Origin: Candidatus Omnitrophota bacterium
GTDB lineage: Bacteria > Omnitrophota > Omnitrophia > Omnitrophales > Aquincolibacteriaceae
Assembly: GCA_022705945.1 (NCBI GenBank)
Contig: JAKJDL010000002.1
Location: forward strand, 191,150-255,149
DNA: 64,000 nt
Direction of reading: 5' to 3'
Shown: piece by piece, positions 49 through 54,359 of the stretch
How the letters are laid out: each line of letters begins with the position of its first letter
How positions within the stretch are numbered: the stretch's first letter is position 1
The notes under the pieces: generated by a model
Told to the model about the DNA's origin: nothing
Seen by the model: the letters and a program-made list of their open reading frames with translations, nothing else
Databases searched by the model: none
Made by a program: the position numbers and the translations under genes

Positions 49-705
49 ATGGGAGCAGAAAAGATCAAAAGACTGGTTTTTCGTTTTTTTTCCCGCCTGC
101 TGATCCTTTTCGGGAAGCTCTGGTTCAGGCTGACGGTCCAGGGTTACGAAAACCTTCCGGTGTGCGGGCCCTGCATTTTAACGGCCAACCATCAAAGCTA
201 CCTCGACATTCTTGCGATCGCGATGCTGCTTGACCGGAAAGAGCTTTTGCACCGGACCTCGTGGGTCATCGGGAAGTCCACTTCCCGGAACCCCTTCCTT
301 CGTCCTCTTTTTCTTGTCTCTCCCTTGATCGTCGTGAACGGAACCGTAAGAAAAGCGGAGGCGGAACTGAAGAAAAACCGCATGCTTGTGATCTTCCCCG
401 AAGGTTTTTACGCTTGGCGCAAATATCTTTTTGAGAGGGGAAAAGAGGCGGCGGAGCCCCGGCGGCAGATCGGAACGAGCGCGGCGATCCTCGGCCTCAA
501 GACAGGATGTGAGATCGTTCCTATCGGAATCCGCGGCACTTATGAAGCCATGCCTCCCTACAGCTTTTTCGCGAAACCGGGAAACCTCTGCCTGCGGATC
601 GGAAAACCGTTCCGCTTTGAAGTTCCCGAGCCGGAGGAAATAATGGACGGGATGATCTCAGAGAAGACAAACCGCGTTATAGCCGAGATCGATGCCCTTC
701 GCTAG
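49..705 (+). CDS. lysophospholipid (1-acyl-sn-glycerol-3-phosphate-type) acyltransferase, PlsC-like
   Basis: HxxxxD motif (NHQSYLD), FPEG block, size about 218 aa; RBS GGAAAGGAA before the ATG. Confidence 0.75.
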   Translation: MGAEKIKRLVFRFFSRLLILFGKLWFRLTVQGYENLPVCGPCILTANHQSYLDILAIAMLLDRKELLHRTSWVIGKSTSRNPFLRPLFLVSPLIVVNGTVRKAEAELKKNRMLVIFPEGFYAWRKYLFERGKEAAEPRRQIGTSAAILGLKTGCEIVPIGIRGTYEAMPPYSFFAKPGNLCLRIGKPFRFEVPEPEEIMDGMISEKTNRVIAEIDALR

Positions 706-828: not shown

Positions 829-2409
829 ATGAGCCATCTGGGAGAGCCTTTTTGCGTTCAGGTAAGCCGGATCCTATCGGTCCAGCCGGGAGATATTTTA
901 CGGCTGATGGGGCAGACCGAGATTTTTTTAAAAGACCTTCCGTTCGTCAAGGAATGCCGCCTCATTAGCAGGGAAGGGTATCGTTCCGTGACTTTCTGGA
1001 GGGTCGAGATCGATCACGTTCCGATATCCTGGAAAGAAGAGTCGATTTTTGATCTCCGGAACGGCACCGTATCTTTCAGGGCTCTTGAGGGAGATCTCCG
1101 GGTGCTCGAGGGAGTCTGGAAACTCACGGAATGCCCGCAGGGAGGAACCGAGGTTTGGATCGAGGCGAAGGTCGAGATCGGCATTCCGGCCGTTTTTGAA
1201 AAGGCCGTCGGAGGGATGATCGTCGAAAAGATCCGGAAATTTTTTGAAACAGTTCTTGATTCGATGGAGGAGAGGATCGGTTTCGAGCGTTACCGGCGAA
1301 AGAATGAAAAATCATCCCGCATTTCCGGGTTCGGGGTAATCGGTCACCCCTACAATTATCAGCATTTTTTGAAAAACCTTCATCTCCTCAAGCTCGATTT
1401 CAAAGCGCCTTCACCCGAATTTTTAACCAAGGTTTTTGATCTGACACCTTCCTACATTTCCTACGGCGTGCAGGAGTTCCGTGACTCGGCCGGAAAAACG
1501 ACCCGCGGGGCTTTTATCGCCTGCAATATCATCCCCGAAATGCTCACGGTCGATATCCGGAAAACCGTGGCCAAGGTGGTGGAATCCTGCAAGGTCGCGG
1601 AACGGCACGGGTTCGGGATCGTCGCACTCGGAGGTTTTACATCGATCGCGGGAGAGAAATACGGCGAAGAATTCCTGAAACAGATACATATTCCCGTGAC
1701 GACCGGGAATACGCTGACGGCCGCGCTCGCGGTCGAGGGAGTCCTCAAAGCGGCGCGTCTCATGGAGACCGATATTTCCAAAGCCAAGGTCGCGGTGATC
1801 GGGGGCGCGGGGGATATCGGGAGCGCTTGCGCCCGCGTCATGGCGTTCTCGGCCAAGGAAGTCACGATCGTGAGCCGCAGTCCGGCAAACCTCAGGAAAA
1901 TGGAAAAAGAGATCAAATCGATCCGGCATGCGAAATTTCACGGCACATCGGACGCGGTGAAAGCGGTTCGGGATGCGGATATCGTGATCGGGGCGGCAAG
2001 CTCCCCCCATTCACTTCTGGAGCTCCGGCATTTCAAAAACGGGGCGATCGTCTGTGACGTCGGATTCCCGAAAAACATTGTCTACGGGGACGTGGACCGC
2101 GGCGATATCCTTGTCTTTGCCGGGGGGATTTGCTCGATCCCCTGTGAATTTCAGACCGGCCTTGAGATCGGACTGCCGTCGACCCGGATGCTTTACGGAT
2201 GTTTTTCCGAAGCGATTGTGCTGGCGCTCGAGGAGCGTTATGAGAATTTTTCGTGGGGGAAAGGCCATATTACCAGGGAGAAGATGGACGAGATCCTGGA
2301 GCTTGCCCAAAAACACGGGTTTTCGCTGGCGCCTTTCTTCTGGTCCGGAGGGATTATCACGGACGACGAGGTTCGCGCGATCGGGACGGGACTCAGGGCC
2401 GGGGTTTGA
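829..2409 (+). CDS. SRPBCC (polyketide cyclase/START-like) N-domain fused to an acyl-ACP reductase (AAR)-family NAD(P)-binding reductase
   Basis: C-terminal 350 aa aligns block-for-block with cyanobacterial AAR (FGVIGH, IPEML, ALGGFTSI, TTGNTLTA, VAVIGGAGDIGSA, DVGFPKN, ENFSWGKGHITREKMDEILELAQKHGF); N-terminal 170 aa has an SRPBCC-like pattern. Confidence 0.8.
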   Translation: MSHLGEPFCVQVSRILSVQPGDILRLMGQTEIFLKDLPFVKECRLISREGYRSVTFWRVEIDHVPISWKEESIFDLRNGTVSFRALEGDLRVLEGVWKLTECPQGGTEVWIEAKVEIGIPAVFEKAVGGMIVEKIRKFFETVLDSMEERIGFERYRRKNEKSSRISGFGVIGHPYNYQHFLKNLHLLKLDFKAPSPEFLTKVFDLTPSYISYGVQEFRDSAGKTTRGAFIACNIIPEMLTVDIRKTVAKVVESCKVAERHGFGIVALGGFTSIAGEKYGEEFLKQIHIPVTTGNTLTAALAVEGVLKAARLMETDISKAKVAVIGGAGDIGSACARVMAFSAKEVTIVSRSPANLRKMEKEIKSIRHAKFHGTSDAVKAVRDADIVIGAASSPHSLLELRHFKNGAIVCDVGFPKNIVYGDVDRGDILVFAGGICSIPCEFQTGLEIGLPSTRMLYGCFSEAIVLALEERYENFSWGKGHITREKMDEILELAQKHGFSLAPFFWSGGIITDDEVRAIGTGLRAGV

Positions 2410-2411
2410 TT

Positions 2412-5072
2412 ATGACGGCGCTGGTCACGGGTGGAACGGGATTTATCGGTTCCGCGCTGGTTCGCCATCTGCTTGCGGCCGGTTACCGCGTCCGGGTGCT
2501 GGTCCGCCAGAAAAAAGACAGCCTACTTCTTGAAAACCTTCCCGTGGAGGTGATCAACGGCGATGTAACGAACGCCCGCGCCGTCGACAAGGCCGTGGAG
2601 GGCTGTTCCGTTGTTTTCAACCTTGCCTCGCTTTATGCCTTCTATCCTTTCTGGATGAAACATCCGAAGGCAATCTACAGGATCAACGTTGACGGTACGG
2701 TCAATATGCTTGAGGCTTCGTTGCGCCACGGCGTAAAAAAATTCATTCACACAAGCACCATTGCCGTCCTTAACCGTCCCGTGGATGGCGGTTCCGTGGA
2801 CGAGAACGCCGGCTTTGATCCGCGTGGTGCGAGCCATTATGCCCGATCGAAATATCAGGCCGAACGGGAAGTCCTTAAGTATTATTCCCGCGGATTGCCG
2901 GCCGTGATCCTGAATCCGGCCGTTGTATTCGGGGAACGCGACCACAAACCGACCCCGTCGGGGGACGTGATCGTGAAATTCCTGAACCGGAGTTATCCCG
3001 GTTATTTTGATACCCTTTGGTCCGTGGCCGATGCCGACGATGTCGCAAAAGCTCATCTTGCGGCCGTGGAGCGGGGAAAGGCGGGCGAGAGGTATATCCT
3101 TGCGAGCGGCGGGCATTACACGCTGAGGGAGATCTTCGGAATACTTGAAAAAATCACCGGGATCAAGGCGCCGCGTCTCCGGATTCCTTACGCAGTTCTT
3201 TTTAGTTTCACTTACCTTGAAGAAGCCGTCGCGTATTTTCTTTTCAGGACCAAGCCGCTTATAGCGACCGAGGGCGTGAAGTTCTGCAAAGCATCCCTTC
3301 CATGTGACGGCTCCAAAGCGATTCGGGATCTCGGATATGCGCCGACGCCGTTTGAGGAAACACTTGCCACGGCCGTCGCCTGGTACCGGAAGAACGGTTA
3401 CGTGGAGCCGAGAGGTTTTTTCCGGATCAGAACCCACGGGTCACGTCTCGTCCGTTTTTTGATGCGCCGGCTGGGTATGGCAGGTTATACGGACAGATTG
3501 AGCCCGGGAACAATCTTTTTTTTCGGCATCGTCAAGCTGCTGAATCTGCTCAAAAAGGCCGGGGCCGGGCGGGGCGAGGACGGTTGGAGGAAGGTGACAC
3601 AGTGTTATCTGAGGACGGAGCAGGCCAAATTTATCCTGACGGTCTTCAATCTGGATTTTCGCTCGGATCTGAAAACAAAAAACGAAATGACCTGCGACGA
3701 TGCCAAACGGCATTTTATTCGGAGATTCGCAAAGTTTCTGAAAACCCAGCCGCTTTTTTGTCAAAAGCTCGAATGGCACAGGTTCTGCGCGAAGTCGGGG
3801 CCGCAGCCTTTTGCGGATATCGTTCAGGCCGAGTTTGACGCCTCCGGAAATCTTCTGCGCTTTGAACCCCGGTTCGATCCGGATGACGAACGAGGGAGGT
3901 TCGAAGCTATGCCGACCGAGCTCAAAGAGCTGCTTTTTGAGGGTCTGCGTCAGGTTTACAACGCTACCCTCGAACTTCCGGATAAAAAACGGCCGCTTCG
4001 TCTCAAAGCGGAGTGGCACCGATGGCTCTCGAAACATTCCGGCTGTTTTTCTGGCGAATGGTTCAAGCGCGCGAAAGAATTGGGCGAGCGTGTGATGAGC
4101 GCCGCATTCATACGTTTTGAGACGCTGCCGGCCGGGCTTTCCGCCCGGGGTTCCGGACGTTTCCGGGTTCCCTGGTTCATCCGTTCCAAACATCCCGGCT
4201 ACGGTCCGCTCACCATCGTGTGCCGCCTGACGCCGGACCTTGAAGCGGCAGACATCTGGATTCAGTTTAGCCATGTGCCTGTTGACGGGGTCCCGGCCCA
4301 GGAAGTGCTGAACAAAATAAAAAAGGAATGGGGGACGAAGGGTGATCTTCCGTTTCCGGCTTCCGGATACCGGCAGGATATGACCCCGGAGGTGTGTTCT
4401 TCCGGCCGTACCGCTGACGGGACCGTGCATGTCTATCAATGTCTTGATTTCCAGCCTTTTCTTCAAGTGAGGAATCAGCTGAACAAACGTTTTGGAGGCC
4501 GCGCGAAGCAGGTGATCTCCTCGGCGGCGCTCCTGATCTGGAAGCTCTCCCAATACCGCGAATTTGAGGACATCAAGTTCGCGGTGCCGGTGGATCTGCG
4601 TGCGGCGGGGGGAAGGGAGCGGACACTCGGTTTTATCTTCATCCGTCCGGCTGTCTATTTTGACAAACAACGCGCCGACCGCGGATTTTTTTCATTCCAA
4701 CAGGAATTTAATCGCCAGCTCTTTTCGGCCCGTAAGCGGCGCGGCGAGAGCTACCGCCTTCTTGAAATTTACACGGCGGCCCCGCACGCCCTTTATGCCG
4801 TGACCGCAAAATTCCTTATGAGGCCTCTCCAGGATTTTGTCGGCTCGCTCGGGATCACGATTATCAAGAAGGCCGATTTTTTTGTGGCGCCGGCAAGCGA
4901 TGTTCATACGGACGGTTTTATCGCGTTCAGCAATTTTACGCTTCCTTCCGAGGACGGCGGGAAAGTAGGCGTCGTTAGCATGAAGGGGCCGAGGGAAAAG
5001 GTTGAAAAATACATGAATGTTCTTCATGATGTCATGCACAGGGCGATCCGGCGCGATGAACTCTATTTTTGA
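2412..5072 (+). CDS. bifunctional protein: N-terminal NAD-dependent epimerase/dehydratase (extended SDR, 3beta-HSD-like) reductase + about 500 aa C-terminal domain with an HxxxDG acyltransferase-like motif
   Basis: TGGTGFIGS Rossmann motif and YxxxK (YARSK) in the first 340 aa. C-terminal region contains IWIQFSHVPVDGVP, which resembles the catalytic HHxxxDG of WS/DGAT, PapA5 and condensation-domain enzymes. ATG at 2412 is 2 nt after the upstream stop; the track start at 2253 lies inside the upstream gene. Confidence 0.65.
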   Translation: MTALVTGGTGFIGSALVRHLLAAGYRVRVLVRQKKDSLLLENLPVEVINGDVTNARAVDKAVEGCSVVFNLASLYAFYPFWMKHPKAIYRINVDGTVNMLEASLRHGVKKFIHTSTIAVLNRPVDGGSVDENAGFDPRGASHYARSKYQAEREVLKYYSRGLPAVILNPAVVFGERDHKPTPSGDVIVKFLNRSYPGYFDTLWSVADADDVAKAHLAAVERGKAGERYILASGGHYTLREIFGILEKITGIKAPRLRIPYAVLFSFTYLEEAVAYFLFRTKPLIATEGVKFCKASLPCDGSKAIRDLGYAPTPFEETLATAVAWYRKNGYVEPRGFFRIRTHGSRLVRFLMRRLGMAGYTDRLSPGTIFFFGIVKLLNLLKKAGAGRGEDGWRKVTQCYLRTEQAKFILTVFNLDFRSDLKTKNEMTCDDAKRHFIRRFAKFLKTQPLFCQKLEWHRFCAKSGPQPFADIVQAEFDASGNLLRFEPRFDPDDERGRFEAMPTELKELLFEGLRQVYNATLELPDKKRPLRLKAEWHRWLSKHSGCFSGEWFKRAKELGERVMSAAFIRFETLPAGLSARGSGRFRVPWFIRSKHPGYGPLTIVCRLTPDLEAADIWIQFSHVPVDGVPAQEVLNKIKKEWGTKGDLPFPASGYRQDMTPEVCSSGRTADGTVHVYQCLDFQPFLQVRNQLNKRFGGRAKQVISSAALLIWKLSQYREFEDIKFAVPVDLRAAGGRERTLGFIFIRPAVYFDKQRADRGFFSFQQEFNRQLFSARKRRGESYRLLEIYTAAPHALYAVTAKFLMRPLQDFVGSLGITIIKKADFFVAPASDVHTDGFIAFSNFTLPSEDGGKVGVVSMKGPREKVEKYMNVLHDVMHRAIRRDELYF

Positions 5073-7284
5073 TCCGAATCAGTATTACTGGAACGTGTAT
5101 GCGCTCCCGCATTTCATTGTCGGGGTGCTTATCATACTTGAGGGTCTGTTCGTGTTCCTTCAGGGTAAACGGACCGTCACACACGTTGCCTACGCGATCA
5201 CGAATTGGACGGCGGGTATCTGGCTTACCGGGGTCGGGATCGTCTGTTCAATGACGGATGAGACGGCGGCGGTCATTGTTTCGCGCTGGTACACCTGGTT
5301 CGGGATCATTTTTATCACGCCCGCCGTTTATTTTTTTATCGCATCGTGGGACCCCGGATTCCTCAGGCGCAAGGCGAAATGGGTCGTGATTCACTATTTT
5401 TGCGCACTTGGCTTTTATCTCGCCTGCGGCCTCACGCCCTGGATCGTTGCGACGGTGTATCCGTATTCGACCGGTTTTTTCCCGAAGGCCGGCCCTCTGG
5501 AAGGGGTGTTCATCGTTTGGTTCTATGCGCTCATGATTCTTTCGTTCGCCAATTTCATGCGGATTTGCCGGAAGGCCGATACCCCTATCCTCAAGAAGAA
5601 TACAAAGCTTATGTTTGTTGCCTATGCGATTGCCTTCCTCGGCTCCATCGAATACCTGCCCAATTACGGAATCCATATTTTCCCGGTTGCGTTCCTGCCG
5701 ATGTTTGTTTTCACGACAATCATCGGCTACTGCGTGATCCGCTACCGCCTCATGGATATCGAGACCGTGATCCACAAAACGGTCATGTGGTTTGTGACGA
5801 GCGCCGTGGCCGTGCTTCCCTTTGCCGGGATCATCTCTTCGGTTCAGCCGATGATGAGGGATTTGAAGCCTGCGGCCGCGGGATTTTATTTCCTGGCGAT
5901 GCTTTTCATTTTCTATTTTTATTACCGCGCCGTGCAGCCGCGTCTCGACCGCCTCTTCCAGTGGCGGCAGACGAACCTGATGGCCGTTCTCGACGGGTTT
6001 TTGAGTGAGCTGGTCCACCTCAAGAATATCCGCGATCTCCTTCAGAGCTTCTCGCGTCTGATGCGCCGTGAGCTTTTTGTGAGGCGGCTTTCGGTTTATC
6101 TTTATGATGAGCAGTCGAAACACTTTGTCCCCGCCATCGCGAAAGGGATCCGCAGTCTCCGTCCCGTGCCCCAGGGAAGCCGATTGCTTCAGTGGCTTGC
6201 GGAGACCGACGGAGCCGTGATCGGTGAGCTTGCCGTGAGCGATCCTGCGGTCGACGAGTTCCGTTCCGAAATGGAAAACTTTTTTTCTGATACGGGCACC
6301 CTGGCCGTATTGCCCTTTGTGCTGGGCGACCGCCTGATCGGCTTTGCGAACCTCGGGAGGAAAAGTAACCTGCGCCGCTACGGTTTCAACGAGATCCGGT
6401 TCCTGAACCGCCTCAAGGTGCCCGTCACGATCGCTCTTTCAAATTCGATGCGGTATGAGGATATCCGCAAGCTTTCCGACGAACTCCAGCTCTGGAACCA
6501 GGCTCTCGAGGAGCGCGTCGACCAGAGGACGCGCGAGCTCGCGAAGACGCAGGAACAGCTCGTGCAGGCCGAAAAGCTCGCGACGCTCGGAACGCTCGCG
6601 GGCGGAGTCGCGCACGAGATCAATAACCCCCTCACGGCGGTACTCACAAACGCGCAGATCCTCCGTATGAGCGCACGGGAGGACGATATCGAATCGATCT
6701 CCCTGATTGAGGAAGGTGCGAAACGATGCCAGGGGATCGTACACAAGCTCATGAAATACGCCCGGAAAACCACTGAGGAAGCGCCTTTGAAAGCGATTGA
6801 TCTTGGCGAGGTTGTGAAGGGAACGGTGGCTCTTCTGGGTTTTCAATTCAAACAGGAAAATATTGAGGTCAAAACGAGGCTTGCGAAGACCCCGCCCGTC
6901 CGGGGAATCGCGGGGGAGATTGAGCAGGTCCTCACGAACCTTCTTGTGAACGCGAAAGACGCGATCCTCGCGGTCCGTCTCCCCGCATCTGCGGGGAATA
7001 CGGCACCCGGGCAGGGAAAGATCATCATAGAAACCCGCAAAGCTCCGGATGCGGTCGAGCTGATAGTGACTGACGACGGCGCGGGTATCCCTAAAGAAAA
7101 TCTTAAAAAGATATTCGATCCTTTCTTTACGACCAGGGATGTCGGCGCAGGCACCGGGCTCGGCCTTTCGGTCAGCCTCGGTATCCTAAAGCGCCACGGC
7201 GCCGCGATTTCGGTCGTGAGCGAGCCCGGCCGCGGCTCCGCCTTTACCATCCGGTTTCCCGATCAAGATCCTGTCTCAAAATGA
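5017..7284 (+). CDS. sensor histidine kinase (N-terminal 7TM sensor, GAF-like, HisKA, HATPase_c)
   Basis: 7 predicted TM helices, HEINNPLT H-box, N/G1/G2 boxes (DDGAGIP, GTGLGLS). Start is ambiguous (5017 or 5056) and overlaps the upstream stop. Confidence 0.85.
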   Translation: MFFMMSCTGRSGAMNSIFDPNQYYWNVYALPHFIVGVLIILEGLFVFLQGKRTVTHVAYAITNWTAGIWLTGVGIVCSMTDETAAVIVSRWYTWFGIIFITPAVYFFIASWDPGFLRRKAKWVVIHYFCALGFYLACGLTPWIVATVYPYSTGFFPKAGPLEGVFIVWFYALMILSFANFMRICRKADTPILKKNTKLMFVAYAIAFLGSIEYLPNYGIHIFPVAFLPMFVFTTIIGYCVIRYRLMDIETVIHKTVMWFVTSAVAVLPFAGIISSVQPMMRDLKPAAAGFYFLAMLFIFYFYYRAVQPRLDRLFQWRQTNLMAVLDGFLSELVHLKNIRDLLQSFSRLMRRELFVRRLSVYLYDEQSKHFVPAIAKGIRSLRPVPQGSRLLQWLAETDGAVIGELAVSDPAVDEFRSEMENFFSDTGTLAVLPFVLGDRLIGFANLGRKSNLRRYGFNEIRFLNRLKVPVTIALSNSMRYEDIRKLSDELQLWNQALEERVDQRTRELAKTQEQLVQAEKLATLGTLAGGVAHEINNPLTAVLTNAQILRMSAREDDIESISLIEEGAKRCQGIVHKLMKYARKTTEEAPLKAIDLGEVVKGTVALLGFQFKQENIEVKTRLAKTPPVRGIAGEIEQVLTNLLVNAKDAILAVRLPASAGNTAPGQGKIIIETRKAPDAVELIVTDDGAGIPKENLKKIFDPFFTTRDVGAGTGLGLSVSLGILKRHGAAISVVSEPGRGSAFTIRFPDQDPVSK

Positions 7285-7742: not shown

Positions 7743-8279
7743 ATGAAAAAAATACTGGTAATAGATGATGATGTTCTTGTCCTGAGGGCGATCAGCAAGT
7801 TGCTTACGATGAACAATTACAACGTGACAGAAGCTAAATCCGGCGAGGAGGCGGCGGGAATATTAAGTAGTGCCGATTTTGATTTAATAGTGTCCGACAT
7901 TAGGATGGCGGGGATGGACGGGATTCAGCTTGTTGAACGTTTGAGGAGTTCCGGCAAGAACACGCCGGTGATTTTCGTGACGGGGTATGCGAGCGAAAAT
8001 GCGCCGGTGGAAGCTTATCGGCTTGAGGTTAAGGACTATGTGTTGAAACCCTTTGATAAGGATGATTTGCTTCGCAAAGTCGAAAAGAATCTGGCTCTTC
8101 GGGAAGCGGAATTTGCAAAAAAGGGTGATTTGTGTCGAACCGTGCGTGGCTTGGTGAGAGATTTTGAAAAAAACAATAGCATGAATATTTACGAAAATGA
8201 AAACCTGAAGAAGTTTATCAGCGAACTCAACGCTGCGCTTTTTGCAGAGGAAAAAGAGCAGGCAAAAAAGTATGAATAA
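7743..8279 (+). CDS. response regulator, stand-alone receiver domain with C-terminal coiled-coil tail
   Basis: KILVIDDD..., D at the phospho-site (LIVSDIRM), conserved T/K (FVTGY, LKPF); no DNA-binding output domain. Confidence 0.85.
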   Translation: MKKILVIDDDVLVLRAISKLLTMNNYNVTEAKSGEEAAGILSSADFDLIVSDIRMAGMDGIQLVERLRSSGKNTPVIFVTGYASENAPVEAYRLEVKDYVLKPFDKDDLLRKVEKNLALREAEFAKKGDLCRTVRGLVRDFEKNNSMNIYENENLKKFISELNAALFAEEKEQAKKYE

Positions 8280-9186
8280 TAGAAAGTTGGGATTTTTTTT
8301 GAGCGTTCTTCGGAAAGAGGCGAATTATTTTTGGGAGCGGCTGGTAGTTTTTTCAATTCGGGTAAGATATCGCTATTGGCGGCGTTTATTATGCCGAGTT
8401 GTTGGCAATGCGACATCTCTTGCGGCTCTGTATTACCGTGTTTTTAGACGCCTAAGATTTCGCACAATTCGGTTGTTTGTGTTTTTTGTTTGGAAATTGT
8501 GGCTGGATAAGGTTGAGGGGTTTGAGAATATTTCCTGGAATGAATCTGCGGTTATCGTTTCAAATCATCTCAGTTACTATGATTTCTTTGTTTTGGCGTC
8601 TGTTCTTGAGCGTCAAACCGTATTCATTGCTACCAAAGGGCTAAATGACAGATCGTTTGTGGGATGGTTTATGAAACTGGACACGATTGTTTATGTTGAT
8701 CGCGAAAAGCCGGGTTACGGTTTTTTTAAGGAAATGGTCAGGCAGACGAAGATGAAAAAAAATGTTGTCATCTATCCTGAAGGAACGAGGTCCCGAAGCG
8801 GAAAGATGTTGGCCCCCAAACCGGGATTTATCAAATTGGCGCTTCTTTGCGGAGTGCCCGTCATCCCTCTGGCGATGCGGGGTACTTATGAAATTCTTCC
8901 GCCGCATGAGCATGTTCCCAAGATGAAAAAGTGCAGCATTCATATAGGCGAGAAGCTTTATATTTCACCTTCCAATCCGCTTTTTCGGGATGTTTTTTAC
9001 CGTTGCGCGAAGGATGGCAAGTATACGAATCTGACAGACGAAGGGATCGAAGAAATTGCATTCCGGATTATGAACCGGATCAGGTTAATGTCCGGGCAGG
9101 AGTGGGATGAAAGCGCTCTCCCCAAGGCCAGATTATACGGTCTTGCGGATGCTTCGCCGAGGGCGGTCGAGTTTTGTTGCCAATGA
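8272..9186 (+). CDS. PlsC-like lysophospholipid acyltransferase (second copy)
   Basis: NHLSYYD (HxxxxD) and PEGTRSRSG blocks; ATG at 8272 chosen (the track TTG at 8242 overlaps the RR stop). Confidence 0.8.
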   Translation: MNNRKLGFFLSVLRKEANYFWERLVVFSIRVRYRYWRRLLCRVVGNATSLAALYYRVFRRLRFRTIRLFVFFVWKLWLDKVEGFENISWNESAVIVSNHLSYYDFFVLASVLERQTVFIATKGLNDRSFVGWFMKLDTIVYVDREKPGYGFFKEMVRQTKMKKNVVIYPEGTRSRSGKMLAPKPGFIKLALLCGVPVIPLAMRGTYEILPPHEHVPKMKKCSIHIGEKLYISPSNPLFRDVFYRCAKDGKYTNLTDEGIEEIAFRIMNRIRLMSGQEWDESALPKARLYGLADASPRAVEFCCQ

Positions 9187-9836
9187 AAAAGGCGGCCTTT
9201 TTTGATGTCGATGGCACGCTGGTTGCATGCCAGTCGCAAAAAAAATTTTCCGATTTTTTATTTTCAGAAAAGATACTCGGAGTTTTCCACATTCTTGTAA
9301 TCTCCTGTTGGTTTGCGGGATATCGGCTTGGACTGTTAAGAAGCAGCATTGGCATGAGAAGAGTTTTTTATCGGTTCCTTTCTTTTGATTCGGCCGAGCG
9401 CGTAAACAATCTGATGATAAAGGCATATCAGGATCTTATCCGTCCGGCATTAAACCTGTTCCTGAAAGAGCGTATTTTGGGTCTGAAAAAGCAAGGCTAT
9501 TTGATTGTTCTGCTTTCAGGGACCCTTCAGCAGTTTTGCAACCTGATTGCGGATGAGTTTGGTGCGGATCAAGCTTTCGGGACGAGGCTGATCGTAGAAG
9601 ACGGACATTTCAGAGGGAAATGGGAGGGAGACATTTTAGAAGGAGAGGCAAAGGCCAGGTTTGTGAAGAAATATTCCAAGGCGAATGACATCAGTTTGGA
9701 ACAGAGCATCGCTTATAGTGATAGTTCGGCGGACTTGCCTCTTTTGGAGATTTGCGGTTCTTCCGTTGCGGTCAATCCTGACCCGGCTCTTAAAACAATC
9801 GCTCAATCGCGCTCCTGGGAAATTTTGAATGGCTAA
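9183..9836 (+). CDS. HAD-superfamily hydrolase, subfamily IB (phosphoserine-phosphatase-like)
   Basis: FFDVDGTLV motif I, S/T motif II (LLSGT), K and DSSAD motif III/IV; ATGA overlap with the upstream acyltransferase stop. Confidence 0.75.
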   Translation: MKKAAFFDVDGTLVACQSQKKFSDFLFSEKILGVFHILVISCWFAGYRLGLLRSSIGMRRVFYRFLSFDSAERVNNLMIKAYQDLIRPALNLFLKERILGLKKQGYLIVLLSGTLQQFCNLIADEFGADQAFGTRLIVEDGHFRGKWEGDILEGEAKARFVKKYSKANDISLEQSIAYSDSSADLPLLEICGSSVAVNPDPALKTIAQSRSWEILNG

Positions 9837-14433: not shown

Positions 14434-16782
14434 ATGTTCCGAAAAATCGCCGAATTTATCGATCACTTCCGCTGGCCCGTATTGCTCGCGATGATCGTGA
14501 GTCTTTTCATAATGGGCAACGCGGCCATGCGCCTCAAGGTCGATCCCTCCATCGAGCCCCTCTTCATCAAAAAATCCGAGGAATACAAGTATTACCAGGC
14601 TTACCGCGAGAAATACGGCTCCGACCAGATGATCGCCGTCGCGATGGCCACCGATGATCTTTTTACGGACGAGAACTTCAGGATCCTCAAGAATGTCACA
14701 AAAGGCATCCAGAGCTTCGACCGGGTCGAGCGCGTGATCAGCCTCGCGAACGCCCAGGATATCCGCCACAAATTCCTCGGCGTGAAGACCGAGCTTGCCT
14801 TCAAGGAGGTCGAGGAGGGCGATAAAAGTGTTGCGCAAATGAAAAAGCGCATCCTCGCCAACGAGCTTTACGTGAGCAATATCGTTTCCAAGGACGGAAG
14901 GATAGGGAATATCGTCGTCTATCTGAAAACCGACGGTGATCCTTCCGCAAACGGCGTTTTCATCCAAGACCTCAAAAAATACCTGGAGGATTTTGAAAGG
15001 CCGGGGCTCAAGTTTTACATGGCCGGCGCGCCGGTCGAACAGTATGAGTTTATTCATCTGATCCACCGCGACCAGATGGTCTTTATCCCGACGATCACGG
15101 TGATCCTGATCCTTGTGACTTTTTTGATCTACCGGAGCTTCGCGTGCATGTTCCTCTCCATGTCGATCGTGTTCACGACGCTCGTCTGGACCATGGGGAC
15201 GATCGCGCTCCTCGGCCAGGAGTTGAACCTTATGACTTCGCTCCTCGCGCCCGTGATCATGATCGTCGCGGTGCTGAATGCGACCTACCTGATCAACCTG
15301 TTTTTCGAGATCCGCCCGCATCATGCCAGCCTCAAGGAGTGTGTGCTGTTGACGATCCAGCAGCTCGGGCTTCCGTGTTTCCTCACGCATTTTACGGCGG
15401 TGCTCGGATTTTCGTCGCTCGCCCTGAGCCCGATCCCCGCGATCCAGAGCTTCGGTCTCTACGCCGCGCTCGGGACATTTTACGCTTATATCATCGAGAT
15501 CGTGCTGACGGTGCTTCTACTCCCGATCCTTCCTTACCGACCGAAAAAGATAGACGCTTTCGATGAAAGCCATTTTTTCAACCGGGTTCTGATCGGGTTC
15601 CTCGAGAACCTGGAAGCCCGCTGGCGCTGGCTGATCCTGCTGGTGACGGGTGCCGTTCTCGTTTTATCGATCTTCGGCATCCGGAAGATCGAAGTCGACA
15701 CGAATATCGTCAAGCAGATGAAGCCCAGTCTGCCGCTCGCGATCGCGACCCGTTTTATCGATGAGAACCTCACCGGAGTTTATTCGCTTGGATTCGTGAT
15801 GCGCCGCAAGGACGGCGAGACGATGGTAGATCCGGCCACGCTCAGGCGTCTTGATGAGTTCAAGACCTATCTTGAAGGCGAGCCGGGGATCGCCAAGGTG
15901 AACTCGATCACGACCCTTGTGAAAAAGATCAATGAGGCCCGGGCGGGGGACGACGATAAATACGAGATCCCGGGGAAGCCGGAACTCCTGAAGCTTTATT
16001 TCAAGGGGATGGTGAAATCGGGGGATCCCGAGCTTTGGAAGATGATCTCCGAAGATCTCAAAGAGGTCCGGATCGAGGCCCGGATGAAGGCTATCGGCAC
16101 GACGCAGGGGGCGGCCCTGGAAGACAGGATCCGGGAGTATCTGGACACGAACATGAGCCGTTATTTTGAATACAAGCTGACGGGGAACGTGGTCCTGCTC
16201 GGAAAGATTTCAAAAGCGCTTGTTCACGAGCAGTCGCAGAGATTCGGGTTTGCCTTTGCTTCCATCCTGACCGTGATCGTTCTTATCTTCCGCTCCCTGC
16301 GCCTGGGAATGCTTGCCGCGATCCCGAATCTTCTTCCGATCCTCGCGGTCTACGGGTTCATGGGCTACGTGGGGATCGAACTTTCAACGGCGACGGCGAT
16401 GATCGCTTCAATCGTGCTCGGGCTTGTGGTGGACGCGTCGATCCAGTTCATCTACCGTTTCGAAAAAGAGTTCCAGCACCGTTTCCACTACCTGCAATCC
16501 CTCCACCACACCTACCGGAACGTCGGTCAGTCGATGGTGCTTTCGGCGCTGATCCTCTGCCTGGGGTTTGCGTCGAGTGTTTTCGCTAGCTTCAGGATCA
16601 CGGTCCATTTCGGGGTTCTGACAAGCCTCACGATTTTTCTCGCGCTCCTCTGCTCGCTTCTTGTTATGCCGGTGTTTCTCGTGATGATCAAGCCCTTCGG
16701 GCCCCAGCGGCTTTTTAAGAGAAAGCTCAAGGGGGGGGATTCGTTCCACGGCCAGCGGCCCGGCCCGCCTGATGGTATATAA
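14434..16782 (+). CDS. MMPL/RND-superfamily exporter (HpnN-like, sterol-sensing-domain type)
   Basis: 782 aa with two 6-TM bundles, each preceded by a large periplasmic loop; MMPL-like topology and motifs. Confidence 0.85.
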   Translation: MFRKIAEFIDHFRWPVLLAMIVSLFIMGNAAMRLKVDPSIEPLFIKKSEEYKYYQAYREKYGSDQMIAVAMATDDLFTDENFRILKNVTKGIQSFDRVERVISLANAQDIRHKFLGVKTELAFKEVEEGDKSVAQMKKRILANELYVSNIVSKDGRIGNIVVYLKTDGDPSANGVFIQDLKKYLEDFERPGLKFYMAGAPVEQYEFIHLIHRDQMVFIPTITVILILVTFLIYRSFACMFLSMSIVFTTLVWTMGTIALLGQELNLMTSLLAPVIMIVAVLNATYLINLFFEIRPHHASLKECVLLTIQQLGLPCFLTHFTAVLGFSSLALSPIPAIQSFGLYAALGTFYAYIIEIVLTVLLLPILPYRPKKIDAFDESHFFNRVLIGFLENLEARWRWLILLVTGAVLVLSIFGIRKIEVDTNIVKQMKPSLPLAIATRFIDENLTGVYSLGFVMRRKDGETMVDPATLRRLDEFKTYLEGEPGIAKVNSITTLVKKINEARAGDDDKYEIPGKPELLKLYFKGMVKSGDPELWKMISEDLKEVRIEARMKAIGTTQGAALEDRIREYLDTNMSRYFEYKLTGNVVLLGKISKALVHEQSQRFGFAFASILTVIVLIFRSLRLGMLAAIPNLLPILAVYGFMGYVGIELSTATAMIASIVLGLVVDASIQFIYRFEKEFQHRFHYLQSLHHTYRNVGQSMVLSALILCLGFASSVFASFRITVHFGVLTSLTIFLALLCSLLVMPVFLVMIKPFGPQRLFKRKLKGGDSFHGQRPGPPDGI

Positions 16783-16800
16783 AAAAAAGTATAAAAAAAA

Positions 16801-16829
16801 GATGCAAATATTTTGTTTATGGATATAAT
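16801..16829 (+). promoter_or_regulatory. promoter-like -10 (GATATAAT) upstream of the DUF11 lipoprotein gene
   Basis: TATAAT at 16824-16829 in an A-rich spacer; a 65-nt leader with a strong SD (AAGGAGG) follows. Confidence 0.35.
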
Positions 16830-16894
16830 CAACGCCTGCTGACAGTTATCGTAGACTGAGCTAACACAGCTTTAACCAACCAAGGAGGCATCAA

Positions 16895-18367
16895 ATGAAG
16901 CTCTCAAAGAGTCTCATGACGGTACTCGCCCTGGTTCTTGTTGTCGGAACGGGATTGGTCCTTTCCGGCTGCGCGACCTGTTGTGGTGAGTCAGCTCCTG
17001 CAAAACCGGCAATGAAGTGCGCGTTCGGTGTGCAGGGGTGCAATAAAGACGCAAGCGCGGTTTGGATCGAGAAATCGATGCCTGACCAGGTTGTGGTCGG
17101 ACAACCTTTTCAATACACTCTTCAGGTGACAAATCTTCGGGGCTGCGCTCTGGAAGATGTGGTCATAGTTGAGCGTGCATCGGATGGACTGCAGATTCAA
17201 TCCGGTGAAGAGGGTCTGAATATTGGTTTCATGAAACCTAATGAAGTGAGACAGATTGTTTTGACGGCCGTTGCGAGTCAGGGCGGCAGTCCTTCGACCT
17301 GCACGACGGCAGATTACAAGCCGGTGCTGTGCTGCGGGACGGAAGCGATCTCTCCGAGCCTGGCGATAGCGCTTGAGGCTCAGGCTACGGGCACACCGTG
17401 CGATGTTATCCCTGCGAAAGTCACCGTTTCGAACCCCGGAACGGGCATGGCTCGCAATGCCAACATCAGCATGGATCTTCCGAAGGGTCTCACGACGACG
17501 GATGGCCAGTCCAGCGTGATGATCAATGTCGGCGATCTTGCCGGCAATGATGCGAAGGCTTACAACGTCAACTTGAAATCCGCGCAGTCGGGTTCTTACT
17601 CGATTAAGGCGAATGCGGAGGCTTCGGGTCTGACGGCTGCGTCCAACGCGGTAACGATTGACGTGAGAAACTGCGACCTGAACGCCAGCGTGAGCGGTCC
17701 GGCCAAGGTATTCATCACGAAGGATGCAAGCTATAAAGTTTCGGTGCAGAACACCGGTGACGCGGATGCCGCCAGTACGGACGTGACGGCGAGCATTCCC
17801 GCCGGAATGAAGTATGTATCGGCTTCAAACGGCGGTTCGGTGTCCGGCAATTCCGTGGTTTGGAATGTCGGGACGCTCGGGGCGGGGAAGAGCGTATCGA
17901 TGGATATGACTCTTAACGCTGTGAGCGGCGGTTCCGGCATGAGCGTGGCGACGGCGAAAGCCTATTGCTGCCAGGGTGAGGGAAGCTGCCCGACCAACAT
18001 CGAAGGGATCCCGGCGCTTCTGTTGGAAGCGATTGACGTGGCAGACCCGATCCAGGTTGGGGGTACGGAGAAGTATTACATCACCGTGACCAACCAGGGC
18101 TCGGCGCCTGATACGAACATCGTTTTGAGCGTCGGCTTTGAGGAGCAGTTTGATTACCAGTCCTCGAATGGTCCGACGGCCGCGGTGAAAGAAAGCGTCA
18201 AGAGCGTGGAATTTGCACCGCTAGCCTCTCTTGCGGCGGGTCAGAAAGCGACTTGGGAAGTGATTGGCAAGGCCAAGTCGGTTGGTGATCACCGCACCTC
18301 CATCAAGATCACGAGCGATTTTCTCAAGAGATCGGTGGACGAGACAGAATCAACCCACGTTTATTAA
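16895..18367 (+). CDS. cell-surface lipoprotein with DUF11 (conserved repeat domain) repeats
   Basis: Lipobox LVLSGC; repeated V(T/S)VxNxG...blocks typical of DUF11; several Cys pairs. Confidence 0.75.
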   Translation: MKLSKSLMTVLALVLVVGTGLVLSGCATCCGESAPAKPAMKCAFGVQGCNKDASAVWIEKSMPDQVVVGQPFQYTLQVTNLRGCALEDVVIVERASDGLQIQSGEEGLNIGFMKPNEVRQIVLTAVASQGGSPSTCTTADYKPVLCCGTEAISPSLAIALEAQATGTPCDVIPAKVTVSNPGTGMARNANISMDLPKGLTTTDGQSSVMINVGDLAGNDAKAYNVNLKSAQSGSYSIKANAEASGLTAASNAVTIDVRNCDLNASVSGPAKVFITKDASYKVSVQNTGDADAASTDVTASIPAGMKYVSASNGGSVSGNSVVWNVGTLGAGKSVSMDMTLNAVSGGSGMSVATAKAYCCQGEGSCPTNIEGIPALLLEAIDVADPIQVGGTEKYYITVTNQGSAPDTNIVLSVGFEEQFDYQSSNGPTAAVKESVKSVEFAPLASLAAGQKATWEVIGKAKSVGDHRTSIKITSDFLKRSVDETESTHVY

Positions 18368-18906: not shown

Positions 18907-18979
18907 GCTGGCGTAGCTCAGTTGGTAGAGCAGCTGTTTTGTAAACAGCGGGTCGGGGGTTCAAATCCCTCCGCCAGCT
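18907..18979 (+). tRNA. tRNA-Thr (anticodon UGU)
   Basis: Cloverleaf: GCTGGCG acceptor, GCTC/GAGC D-stem, GCTGT/ACAGC anticodon stem with loop TTTGTAA, GGGGG-TTCAAAT-CCCTC T-arm. Confidence 0.9.
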
Positions 18980-19058
18980 TGTTTGTAGGGCCATGCCGGC
19001 TGATTTTTGATATGATTCGTGCGCGCATTATTAGAAACGAGATGTTTCTGTCTGACGC

Positions 19059-19141
19059 GGGGAGTTGCCCGAGCGGCCAAAGGGGACAGACTGTAAATCT
19101 GTTGGCTTATGCCTTCAGTGGTTCGAATCCACTACTCCCCA
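19059..19141 (+). tRNA. tRNA-Tyr (anticodon GUA), long variable arm
   Basis: Near-identical layout to E. coli tRNA-Tyr (CCCGAGCGGCCAAAGGG D-arm, CAGACTGTAAATCTG anticodon arm, 13-nt variable arm, TTCGAAT T-loop). Confidence 0.9.
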
Positions 19142-19524
19142 TTCGCCTTTACCAAGGCTCCGGCGAATGTGTATTCCAAAACAATAGCGTGTCTTCTAAA
19201 GAGCCCTGCAATGCCGTTGCAAAGGCGAATGGGCCTGCCGAAGCTTTTATGAGGCGAAAAGCAGGGGAGGGCCTTATGCACTATGCCTATTTATTACGCG
19301 GTATTTCTTTTCCCCCGCCAAACCTGCGCAGGCGTAACGGCTAATCTCAAGAAACGGGGCTCGCTGAGAATGCAATTCAAGGCGATTCTCTCATACTTCC
19401 AATAACCGTTTTGAGCTCCACGGGCTTGCACGTGGGCATCTACGCATGTTAGTATTTTTACAGAGGAATCCCCAAAACATACAGTGGCTATATTCCGTTA
19501 TAGCGGCGATCAAGGAAGCAAGTA

Positions 19525-54104: not shown

Positions 54105-54261
54105 TGTCAAATTGCGGTATGTTGCCGTTTGAATAAAAGGCCGGAGTTCTGAAATCGCGTCTCCCAAACCTCCCGCGGGACTATCAACCTGCAGGGTCGT
54201 AGACAATCGGGACAATCCAATTTCGCTATGGTAATATGTCATCATAATCTTTTAGCCATCT

Positions 54262-54335
54262 GCCCCCATAGCTCAATTGGATAGAGCATCTCCGTCCTAA
54301 GGAGAGGGTTCCCTGTTCGATTCAGGGTGGGGGCG
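54262..54335 (+). tRNA. tRNA-Arg (anticodon CCU)
   Basis: GCCCCCA acceptor, GCTC/GAGC D-stem, TCTCC/GGAGA anticodon stem with loop GTCCTAA, CCCTG-TTCGATT-CAGGG T-arm. Confidence 0.9.
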
Positions 54336-54359
54336 TTTTACCTGTCTTGTAAGGATAGA

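Follow-up and report, generated by a model that had tools for sequence, protein, structure and literature searches.

A gene on the forward strand of a 64,000-nucleotide stretch of Candidatus Omnitrophota DNA (contig JAKJDL010000002.1; the whole stretch is referred to below as the window) encodes, between positions 2412 and 5072, a fusion of a short-chain dehydrogenase/reductase (SDR) with a large, uncharacterised C-terminal domain. This C-terminal domain is predicted to have the two-lobed fold of the CAT-like (CoA-dependent acyltransferase) superfamily. Its sequence family and the architecture in which it occurs here are new, and both lie inside a well-known enzyme superfamily whose standard catalytic motif the family carries. 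The evidence for this assignment consists of a confident structural model, the identity of its structural neighbours, and the conservation of the predicted catalytic residues in nearly all of about 200 copies of the domain.

Fold and sequence family of the C-terminal domain

The C-terminal part of the protein comprises 546 amino acids (residues 341-886) for which neither Pfam (to E<=1) nor NCBIfam gave a match. Pfam scans of 11 close family members (E<=10) and 10 distant members (E<=0.1) were likewise empty, and a PDB sequence search with a family profile restricted to the domain gave a best E of about 1. A first profile, which had included the N-terminal SDR and hydrolase domains, retrieved those domains alone. 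An earlier prediction made from the letters of the window (the original prediction) had described this region as some 500 residues without an obvious family; the lack of a family match stands, but the region is larger than was thought. Searching 5.8 billion proteins yielded 61 relatives; when 1.84 billion cluster representatives (50% identity) were searched exhaustively with a profile, 320 reached E<=0.001, of which 181 reached E<=1e-30.

Residues 341-886 were modelled with AlphaFold2 from a 31-sequence alignment (pLDDT 89.5, pTM 0.91). The model has the two-lobed (pseudo-dimeric) alpha/beta fold of the CAT-like superfamily (Pfam clan CL0149). A Foldseek comparison with the PDB matched 288 chains at E<=0.001; each of the best 50 is a CAT-like acyltransferase of the two-lobed type or is related to these enzymes (E 5e-10 to 1e-7, probability 1.00). 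They include choline acetyltransferase, CPT2, carnitine octanoyltransferase, the BAHD enzymes HCT, SDT and COSY, TRI101, the WS/DGAT structure 6chj and AzeD. Structure prediction had been proposed as the check for a CAT/condensation fold, and both the confident model and the superfamily membership of the neighbours listed agree with that expectation. Judged by this model, the sequence family is new, but the two-lobed fold that it adopts is already known. The suggestion of a divergent or novel acyltransferase fold is thus corrected in that the fold is a familiar one.

A hydrophobic helix (PGTIFFFGIVKLLNLLKK) at the start of the domain is conserved, also in family members that stand alone, and is possibly an anchor to the membrane surface, in which case the protein would be membrane-associated. 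Further residues are near-invariant in about 200 domain copies (W392, R393, R560, R583, D614, W616, R737, R745 and P746); by their conservation they point to a conserved binding site, possibly one for phosphate.

A few members are shorter, at about 415-435 aa (proteins P0174, P0183, P0190, P0203 and P0209, the last at positions 6001-7251 of locus L053). In these, the family profile is matched chiefly over the portion that begins shortly ahead of the catalytic motif and extends to the C-terminus, which means that the N-terminal lobe is a different one. Neither a Pfam match nor an informative gene context was obtained for them, and the names of P0183 and P0209 are equally uninformative.

The predicted catalytic motif

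The segment ADIWIQFSHVPVDGVP (residues 613-628) contains S620, H621, D625 and G626. For a sequence as long as this one and of its composition, chance alone would give 0.079 occurrences of H...DG; the protein has one, so that the motif taken by itself is weak evidence. Its conservation was therefore counted over about 200 domain copies from 209 family proteins, whose identity goes as low as about 30%. Of 200 copies, 198 have His621, 199 have Asp625 and 199 have Gly626. The position preceding His621 is occupied by His in 90 copies, Ser in 63 and Asn in 37. As it is most often His, the family consensus is the canonical HHxxxDG, and the Ser of the window protein is a common variant. We hold the motif to be real on the strength of this family-wide conservation, to which the predicted fold adds. 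The original prediction had likened SHVPVDG to the HHxxxDG active site, with its first His replaced by Ser, and had named conservation among relatives as the test; on each of these points it was confirmed.

The same counts bear on the possibility that the motif is a chance match and that the C-terminal region, instead of being an enzyme, is attached to the SDR for lipid binding or as a structural element. The chance expectation just given, and the failure to find sequence-level homology to any characterised enzyme, would allow for this, but the retention of His, Asp and Gly in 198-199 of 200 copies, together with the other invariant polar residues, effectively excludes it. In addition, the domain occurs alone in most members, and its fold is that of enzymes which use HHxxxDG. 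We regard a chance match as exceedingly improbable.

The model places a beta-strand (domain residues 273-279), the motif (281-286) and a helix (286-300) in that order, a setting known from CAT, E2 and condensation domains. Two profile-profile alignments were made with hhalign. The family profile gave a single local alignment with the CAT sequence from L003, motif on motif, at a probability of 0.8%; a 159-sequence family profile aligned with AtfA over 25 columns around the motif at 5.9%, the AtfA alignment being of such low diversity (all Acinetobacter, >82% identity) that this was a weak test. These alignments support the register of the motif rather than homology.

Comparison with known acyltransferases of the superfamily

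The family resembles the WS/DGAT enzymes (AtfA 7nxg and Ma2 6chj; PF03007 plus PF06974) in several respects: both have the two-lobed CAT-like fold (6chj was matched at E 2e-8); both carry HHxxxDG after a beta-strand, and hhalign puts the family's DLWxQxHHVxxDG on AMYFKIHHAMVDG of AtfA, although not significantly; and the gene context is lipid-related, including an aldehyde-forming reductase. In contrast to WS/DGAT, the family has no Pfam match, and the hhalign probability is 5.9%. About 280 residues precede the catalytic His here (position 281 of the 546-residue domain), whereas the first His of the motif lies at 132 of 458 in AtfA, in line with the 130-140 residues or so that come before it in WS/DGAT domains of about 450 aa. 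A pre-motif stretch longer than in canonical WS/DGAT had been foreseen, but its length, put at about 220 residues from the reductase to the motif, is actually about 281-290. Moreover, the family is found fused to an SDR or an alpha/beta-hydrolase, and its named members come from Omnitrophota and Lentisphaerota only. A phmmer search of the window with AtfA gave no match. WS/DGAT membership is thus unsupported by Pfam, phmmer, hhalign or the position of the His.

The best-ranked structural neighbours are carnitine/choline acyltransferases (choline acetyltransferase 1q6x, CPT2 2deb and carnitine octanoyltransferase 1xl7; E 5e-10, TMq up to 0.54). They are of similar size (about 550-600 aa), and their catalytic His lies some 320-370 residues in, so that they have a comparably long stretch before it. 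It is nonetheless decidedly improbable that the domain is an enzyme of this type, with CoA and a small polar alcohol as the partners between which an acyl group passes. No sequence similarity was detectable (no Pfam match at E<=10, PF00755 included, and no PDB sequence match with the family profile). The known enzymes are mainly eukaryotic and act on small quaternary-ammonium alcohols, whereas the gene context here consists of reductases and lipases, with no genes of carnitine or choline metabolism or transport in the scanned loci. Their top rank may merely reflect size, as the target-normalised TM-scores are about equal for BAHD, WS/DGAT and AzeD.

The gene and its reading frame

Translation of 2412-5072 (+) gives 886 uninterrupted codons plus a stop codon. 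A mechanical list of open reading frames opens this frame earlier, at GTG 2253. However, the TGA of the upstream gene ends 2 nt before ATG 2412, a 100% identical protein of 886 aa is known from public data on a Candidatus Omnitrophica genome bin, and nearly all fused homologues have 879-887 aa. ATG 2412 is therefore the supported start, and the longer version was rejected on the lengths of the homologues. Two long antisense reading frames lie inside the gene, 2523-3437 (-) with 304 aa and 3441-4670 (-) with 409 aa. As the plus-strand product has full-length homologues (at 50-69% identity), these are unsupported as genes; most likely, they are artefacts of base composition.

The full-length AlphaFold2 model of the 886-residue protein (pLDDT 86.6, pTM 0.85) suggests a defined packing of the two parts, which would be consistent with a fixed arrangement of both enzymes.

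The N-terminal reductase domain

The SDR domain ends at about residue 331-340. Residues 1-331 matched the Pfam families Epimerase (3.5e-40), 3Beta_HSD (3.2e-29) and NAD_binding_4 (2.8e-18), and the Epimerase score (PF01370, 138.4 bits against a cut-off of 20.9) places the domain among the extended SDRs. This bears out the earlier view of residues 1-340 as an NAD(P)-dependent reductase with GxxGxxG and YxxxK motifs. The best curated model was HpnA (TIGR03466), matched over its full length with 327.1 bits (9.4e-98), which is below its membership cut-off of 367.65 bits; the sterol demethylase SdmB (199 bits) and then OleD were the next NCBIfam models. In a PDB sequence search, the closest solved structure was 3wj7 (5.1e-62), and weaker matches (1e-22 to 1e-13) were to sugar epimerases, vestitone reductase, cinnamoyl-CoA reductase and dihydroflavonol reductase. 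We take 3wj7 to be Gox2253, which is reportedly an NADPH-dependent reductase of C7-C10 aliphatic aldehydes. Basic residues (Arg32 and Lys34/35) follow beta-strand 2 (VLVRQKK) in the window protein. Such residues are typical of NADPH-using SDRs and suggest, from the sequence, that this domain uses NADPH as well.

With HpnA and the presumed Gox2253, the domain shares an end-to-end alignment of 331 residues and the GxxGxxG and YxxxK motifs. It differs in its HpnA score, in the 546-residue acyltransferase that follows it in the window protein and in 32 aligned fused homologues, and in its surroundings: no hopanoid genes were found nearby, squalene and hopene synthesis domains being absent from L001 and from those window gene products that were scanned (the 30 larger ones).

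Family architectures and gene context

Most of the 209 family proteins (137) stand alone; 41 have an N-terminal SDR and 28 an N-terminal alpha/beta-hydrolase, in which the GHSFG nucleophile elbow is intact. A scan of species-representative genomes gave 43 loci. Wherever the title is informative, the source is Omnitrophota or Lentisphaerota/Victivallales, and many are from rumen or gut. The proteins are currently annotated as "SDR", "3-beta-HSD", "alpha/beta hydrolase" or "hypothetical". No relevant publication emerged from literature searches on wax esters in Omnitrophota, on fusions of HpnA, or on HHxxxDG in Lentisphaerae.

In the window, the gene directly upstream of the fusion encodes a 526-residue protein with an SRPBCC part and a part like acyl-ACP reductase (AAR; ACP, acyl carrier protein). 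Its PDB matches are AAR (6jzq, 1.7e-36), PigE (4ppm, 1.3e-29) and an SRPBCC protein (2d4r, 1.6e-6). The catalytic Cys of AAR is retained (ygCFseA aligned with faCFaeA). The protein scored 170.8 bits against the PigE N-terminal domain and 166.6 bits against TIGR04058 (long-chain acyl-ACP reductase AAR); as the cut-off of the latter is 449.7 bits, it is not an AAR equivalog. We presume that it supplies an aldehyde. The same two neighbours, an SRPBCC-AAR gene followed immediately by an SDR-CAT-like gene, are found in L001, L010 and L056. In L011, the SDR and the CAT-like protein are encoded by separate adjacent genes, preceded by the SRPBCC-AAR reductase gene and a gene for a PlsC-like acyltransferase. 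As the two activities are joined in one polypeptide in 41 of 209 proteins and lie side by side in L011, they can be taken to work together. Directly downstream of the CAT-like gene, an orthologue of the window's sensor histidine kinase is found in L001, L007, L010, L011 and L056, which makes it a neighbour common to every Omnitrophota locus.

Further Omnitrophota loci (L054, L055 and L057) were found by way of the SRPBCC-AAR reductase. Between the SRPBCC-AAR gene and the gene for a seven-transmembrane (7TM) kinase there is a slot that, in L054, is occupied by a PigE-like class-III aminotransferase (481 bits) and a GNAT acyltransferase and, in L055 and L057, is empty. An aldehyde generator followed either by a reductase and an O-acyltransferase-like enzyme or by an aminotransferase and an N-acyltransferase makes a coherent pair of tailoring routes, with the L054 arrangement as the parallel route from aldehyde to amine to amide. 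This comparison of the slot is the main basis of the mechanism proposed below. It also recalls PigE of prodigiosin biosynthesis (4ppm), in which an AAR-like reductase is joined to a class-III aminotransferase: the upstream protein of the window matches the N-terminal reductase-like domain of PigE, the reductase of L054 is followed by a PigE-like aminotransferase, and in both cases the scheme is to form an aldehyde first and to tailor it afterwards. The difference is that tailoring in the window would be by SDR and CAT-like domains, not by an aminotransferase, and that the reductase is instead fused to SRPBCC.

A modular locus is shared by the window (829-7284), L001, L010, L011, L054, L055, L056 and L057, in the order of two RND (ACR_tran) pumps, two small uncharacterised proteins (about 200 aa), SRPBCC-AAR, the variable slot, and at least one 7TM histidine kinase. 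Such a locus may make and sense a lipid-derived molecule.

In Lentisphaerota, a gene of the LCAT family (PF02450, with an AHSMG nucleophile motif) is often the immediate neighbour of the CAT-like gene, in the same orientation (24 of 40 species loci). The spacing ranges from a 124-nt overlap to a 28-nt gap, a 4-nt overlap being most common. The pairs occur in L005 (8493-11644), L008 (8001-12043), L018, L021, L023-L027, L030-L040, L042, L043, L045, L046 and L052. The overlap suggests translational coupling and perhaps a two-enzyme complex. One Omnitrophota locus has an LCAT-like gene, an SDR gene and then a hydrolase-CAT-like gene. In two Victivallaceae loci (L015, 5047-7044, and L048, 5070-7037), a histidine kinase related to that of the window is encoded directly upstream of a hydrolase-CAT-like gene, so the association with the kinase may extend beyond Omnitrophota. 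In both phyla, the recurring partners of the CAT-like domain are enzymes that act on acyl chains.

These contexts also bear on whether the domain runs a reaction of the CAT fold other than ester formation, such as an amide-forming condensation, the off-loading of an ACP-bound chain, or a reaction of the dehydratase or epimerase type. HHxxxDG is common to condensation, epimerisation and related domains, the AzeD dehydratase (8s6l, TMt 0.51) is among the Foldseek matches, and the family of the partner reductase acts on ACP thioesters. PapA5, the condensation domains of nonribosomal peptide synthetases (NRPSs) and the BAHD enzymes share superfamily and catalytic motif with the domain, and BAHD HCT is among the top Foldseek matches. 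However, there is no assembly line here and no Pfam Condensation or Transferase match; no carrier-protein, adenylation, polyketide synthase or NRPS gene occurs nearby in the scanned loci; the partners are lipases or acyltransferases and reductases; and 137 of the 209 family proteins consist of this domain as a lone enzyme. We consider a non-ester reaction improbable.

Table 1. Positions of the fusion gene, its domains and motifs, and adjoining genes in the window
Feature	Position	Strand	Basis or remarks
SDR + CAT-like acyltransferase fusion, whole gene	2412..5072	+	886 aa, stop codon included
HpnA/Gox2253-like extended SDR, NAD(P)H-dependent reductase domain, residues 1-331	2412..3404	+	Pfam, TIGR03466 and PDB matches
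GGTGFIG, dinucleotide-binding motif, residues 7-13	2430..2450	+	G7, G10 and G13 invariant in 33 fused homologues
YARSK, SDR catalytic Tyr/Lys, residues 143-147	2838..2852	+	Y143 and K147 invariant in 33 fused homologues
New family of the two-lobed CAT-like superfamily (predicted), residues 341-886	3432..5069	+	Model, Foldseek and profile search
Hydrophobic helix, start of CAT-like domain, residues 365-382	3504..3557	+	Full-length model
S620-H621-V-P-V-D625-G626, predicted catalytic motif, His621 as general base	4269..4289	+	Conservation and model
PlsC-type (HxxxxD) acyltransferase, head of same-strand run	49..705	+	Pfam Acyltransferase 6e-16
SRPBCC lipid-binding + acyl-ACP-reductase-like thioester reductase, 526 aa	829..2409	+	PDB and NCBIfam matches
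Membrane sensor histidine kinase	5017..7284	+	HisKA, HATPase_c and GAF; overlaps 3' end of fusion gene by 56 nt

Other genes of the window

It is uncertain whether the PlsC-like gene at the head of the run belongs to the system: a homologue lies beside the SRPBCC-AAR gene in L011 too, and none was seen in L001. The gene for a second PlsC-like acyltransferase (8242-9186) overlaps that for an HAD-IB phosphatase (9174-9836) between two histidine kinase genes. This pair (8242-9836), which could acylate and dephosphorylate lysolipids, was not seen at the matching place in L001. Farther downstream (14434-18367) are genes for an MMPL/HAE3-family RND transporter, with a sterol-sensing-domain match and weak HpnN/BstA similarity, and a DUF11/CARDB repeat protein, the relative position of both being conserved in L001. 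Genes for tRNA-Thr(TGT), tRNA-Tyr(GTA) and tRNA-Arg(CCT) are present at 18907-19141 and 54261-54336; a 140-aa reading frame (18922-19344) that spans the first two is spurious.

Discussion

The reading that we favour, and to which we give about an even chance, is that the fusion is a bifunctional lipid enzyme that reduces and then acylates: an aldehyde from the upstream SRPBCC-AAR protein would be converted to an alcohol by the SDR and then to an ester by way of His621. The substrates, the direction of the SDR reaction and the acyl donor that we infer for each step are as follows: the SRPBCC-AAR protein would reduce an acyl thioester (probably acyl-ACP) to a fatty aldehyde; the HpnA/Gox2253-like SDR domain would reduce this aldehyde to the alcohol; His621, acting as general base, would deprotonate the alcohol, with Asp625 and Gly626 holding the catalytic loop; and the alcohol would attack an acyl-CoA or acyl-ACP thioester, giving the ester. 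The product would be a wax-ester-like lipid if the donor is long-chain, or an alkyl acetate if it is acetyl-CoA. By analogy with the GNAT variant and with the acetyltransferases among the structural neighbours, acetyl-CoA could be the donor.

Several points weigh against this proposal. The TM-scores to known enzymes are only 0.3-0.54 (best 50 of the 288 Foldseek matches), and the profile-profile alignments to WS/DGAT (5.9%) and CAT (0.8%) are not significant. The Lentisphaerota versions have no reductase partner, so at the level of the family the acceptor cannot always be an AAR-derived alcohol. Finally, the SDR domain scores best against the HpnA and SdmB models, whose roles concern polycyclic triterpenoids or are not established, so that a ketone, and not an aldehyde, could be what it acts on.

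The last point leads to another possibility, namely that the CAT-like domain is a neutral-lipid or polycyclic-lipid acyltransferase (DGAT-like, or a steryl- or hopanoid-ester synthase), with the SDR acting on a 3-keto/3-hydroxy lipid and the AAR-like neighbour being used otherwise. The best family matches of the SDR (HpnA at 327 bits and SdmB at 199 bits) would fit this, as would the LCAT-family gene, the most frequent partner in Lentisphaerota, since LCAT/PDAT enzymes make steryl esters and triacylglycerol. The same can be said of the MMPL/HAE3 transporter with its sterol-sensing-domain match, 9 kb downstream and conserved in L001, and of the PlsC-like acyltransferases in the window. However, no squalene, hopene or sterol synthesis genes were found among the scanned gene products of the 64-kb window, and the HpnA score is under the model cut-off. 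At the same time, the repeated tight order of AAR-like, SDR and CAT-like genes, and the exchange for aminotransferase and GNAT in L054, better fit the tailoring of an aldehyde. We therefore consider this possibility unlikely.

A broader view can also be put forward, although we hold it to be doubtful: with this family, bacteria would have a third class of ester-lipid synthase that had so far gone unrecognised and that is restricted to uncultured members of the PVC group (Omnitrophota and gut or rumen Lentisphaerota), and in Omnitrophota the family would be one option of a modular locus that makes and senses a lipid-derived signal. That locus may comprise the RND pumps, the SRPBCC-AAR aldehyde generator, a swappable tailoring pair and the 7TM histidine kinases, and its product, serving as a signal and not for storage, could be a fatty alcohol ester, for instance, or an N-acyl amine.

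The assignment to the CAT superfamily, with an intact HHxxxDG motif, provides a testable function in lipid metabolism for proteins of two phyla that have few or no cultured members, and the organisms concerned include common rumen and gut Lentisphaerota. HpnA has no established function, and the SDR domain is close to it; what the domain does here may thus also offer a clue to the role of HpnA-like enzymes. If the proposed mechanism is true, the reductase-acyltransferase fusion would represent a compact, one-polypeptide route from aldehyde to ester, which would be of practical interest for the production of wax esters and alkyl esters.

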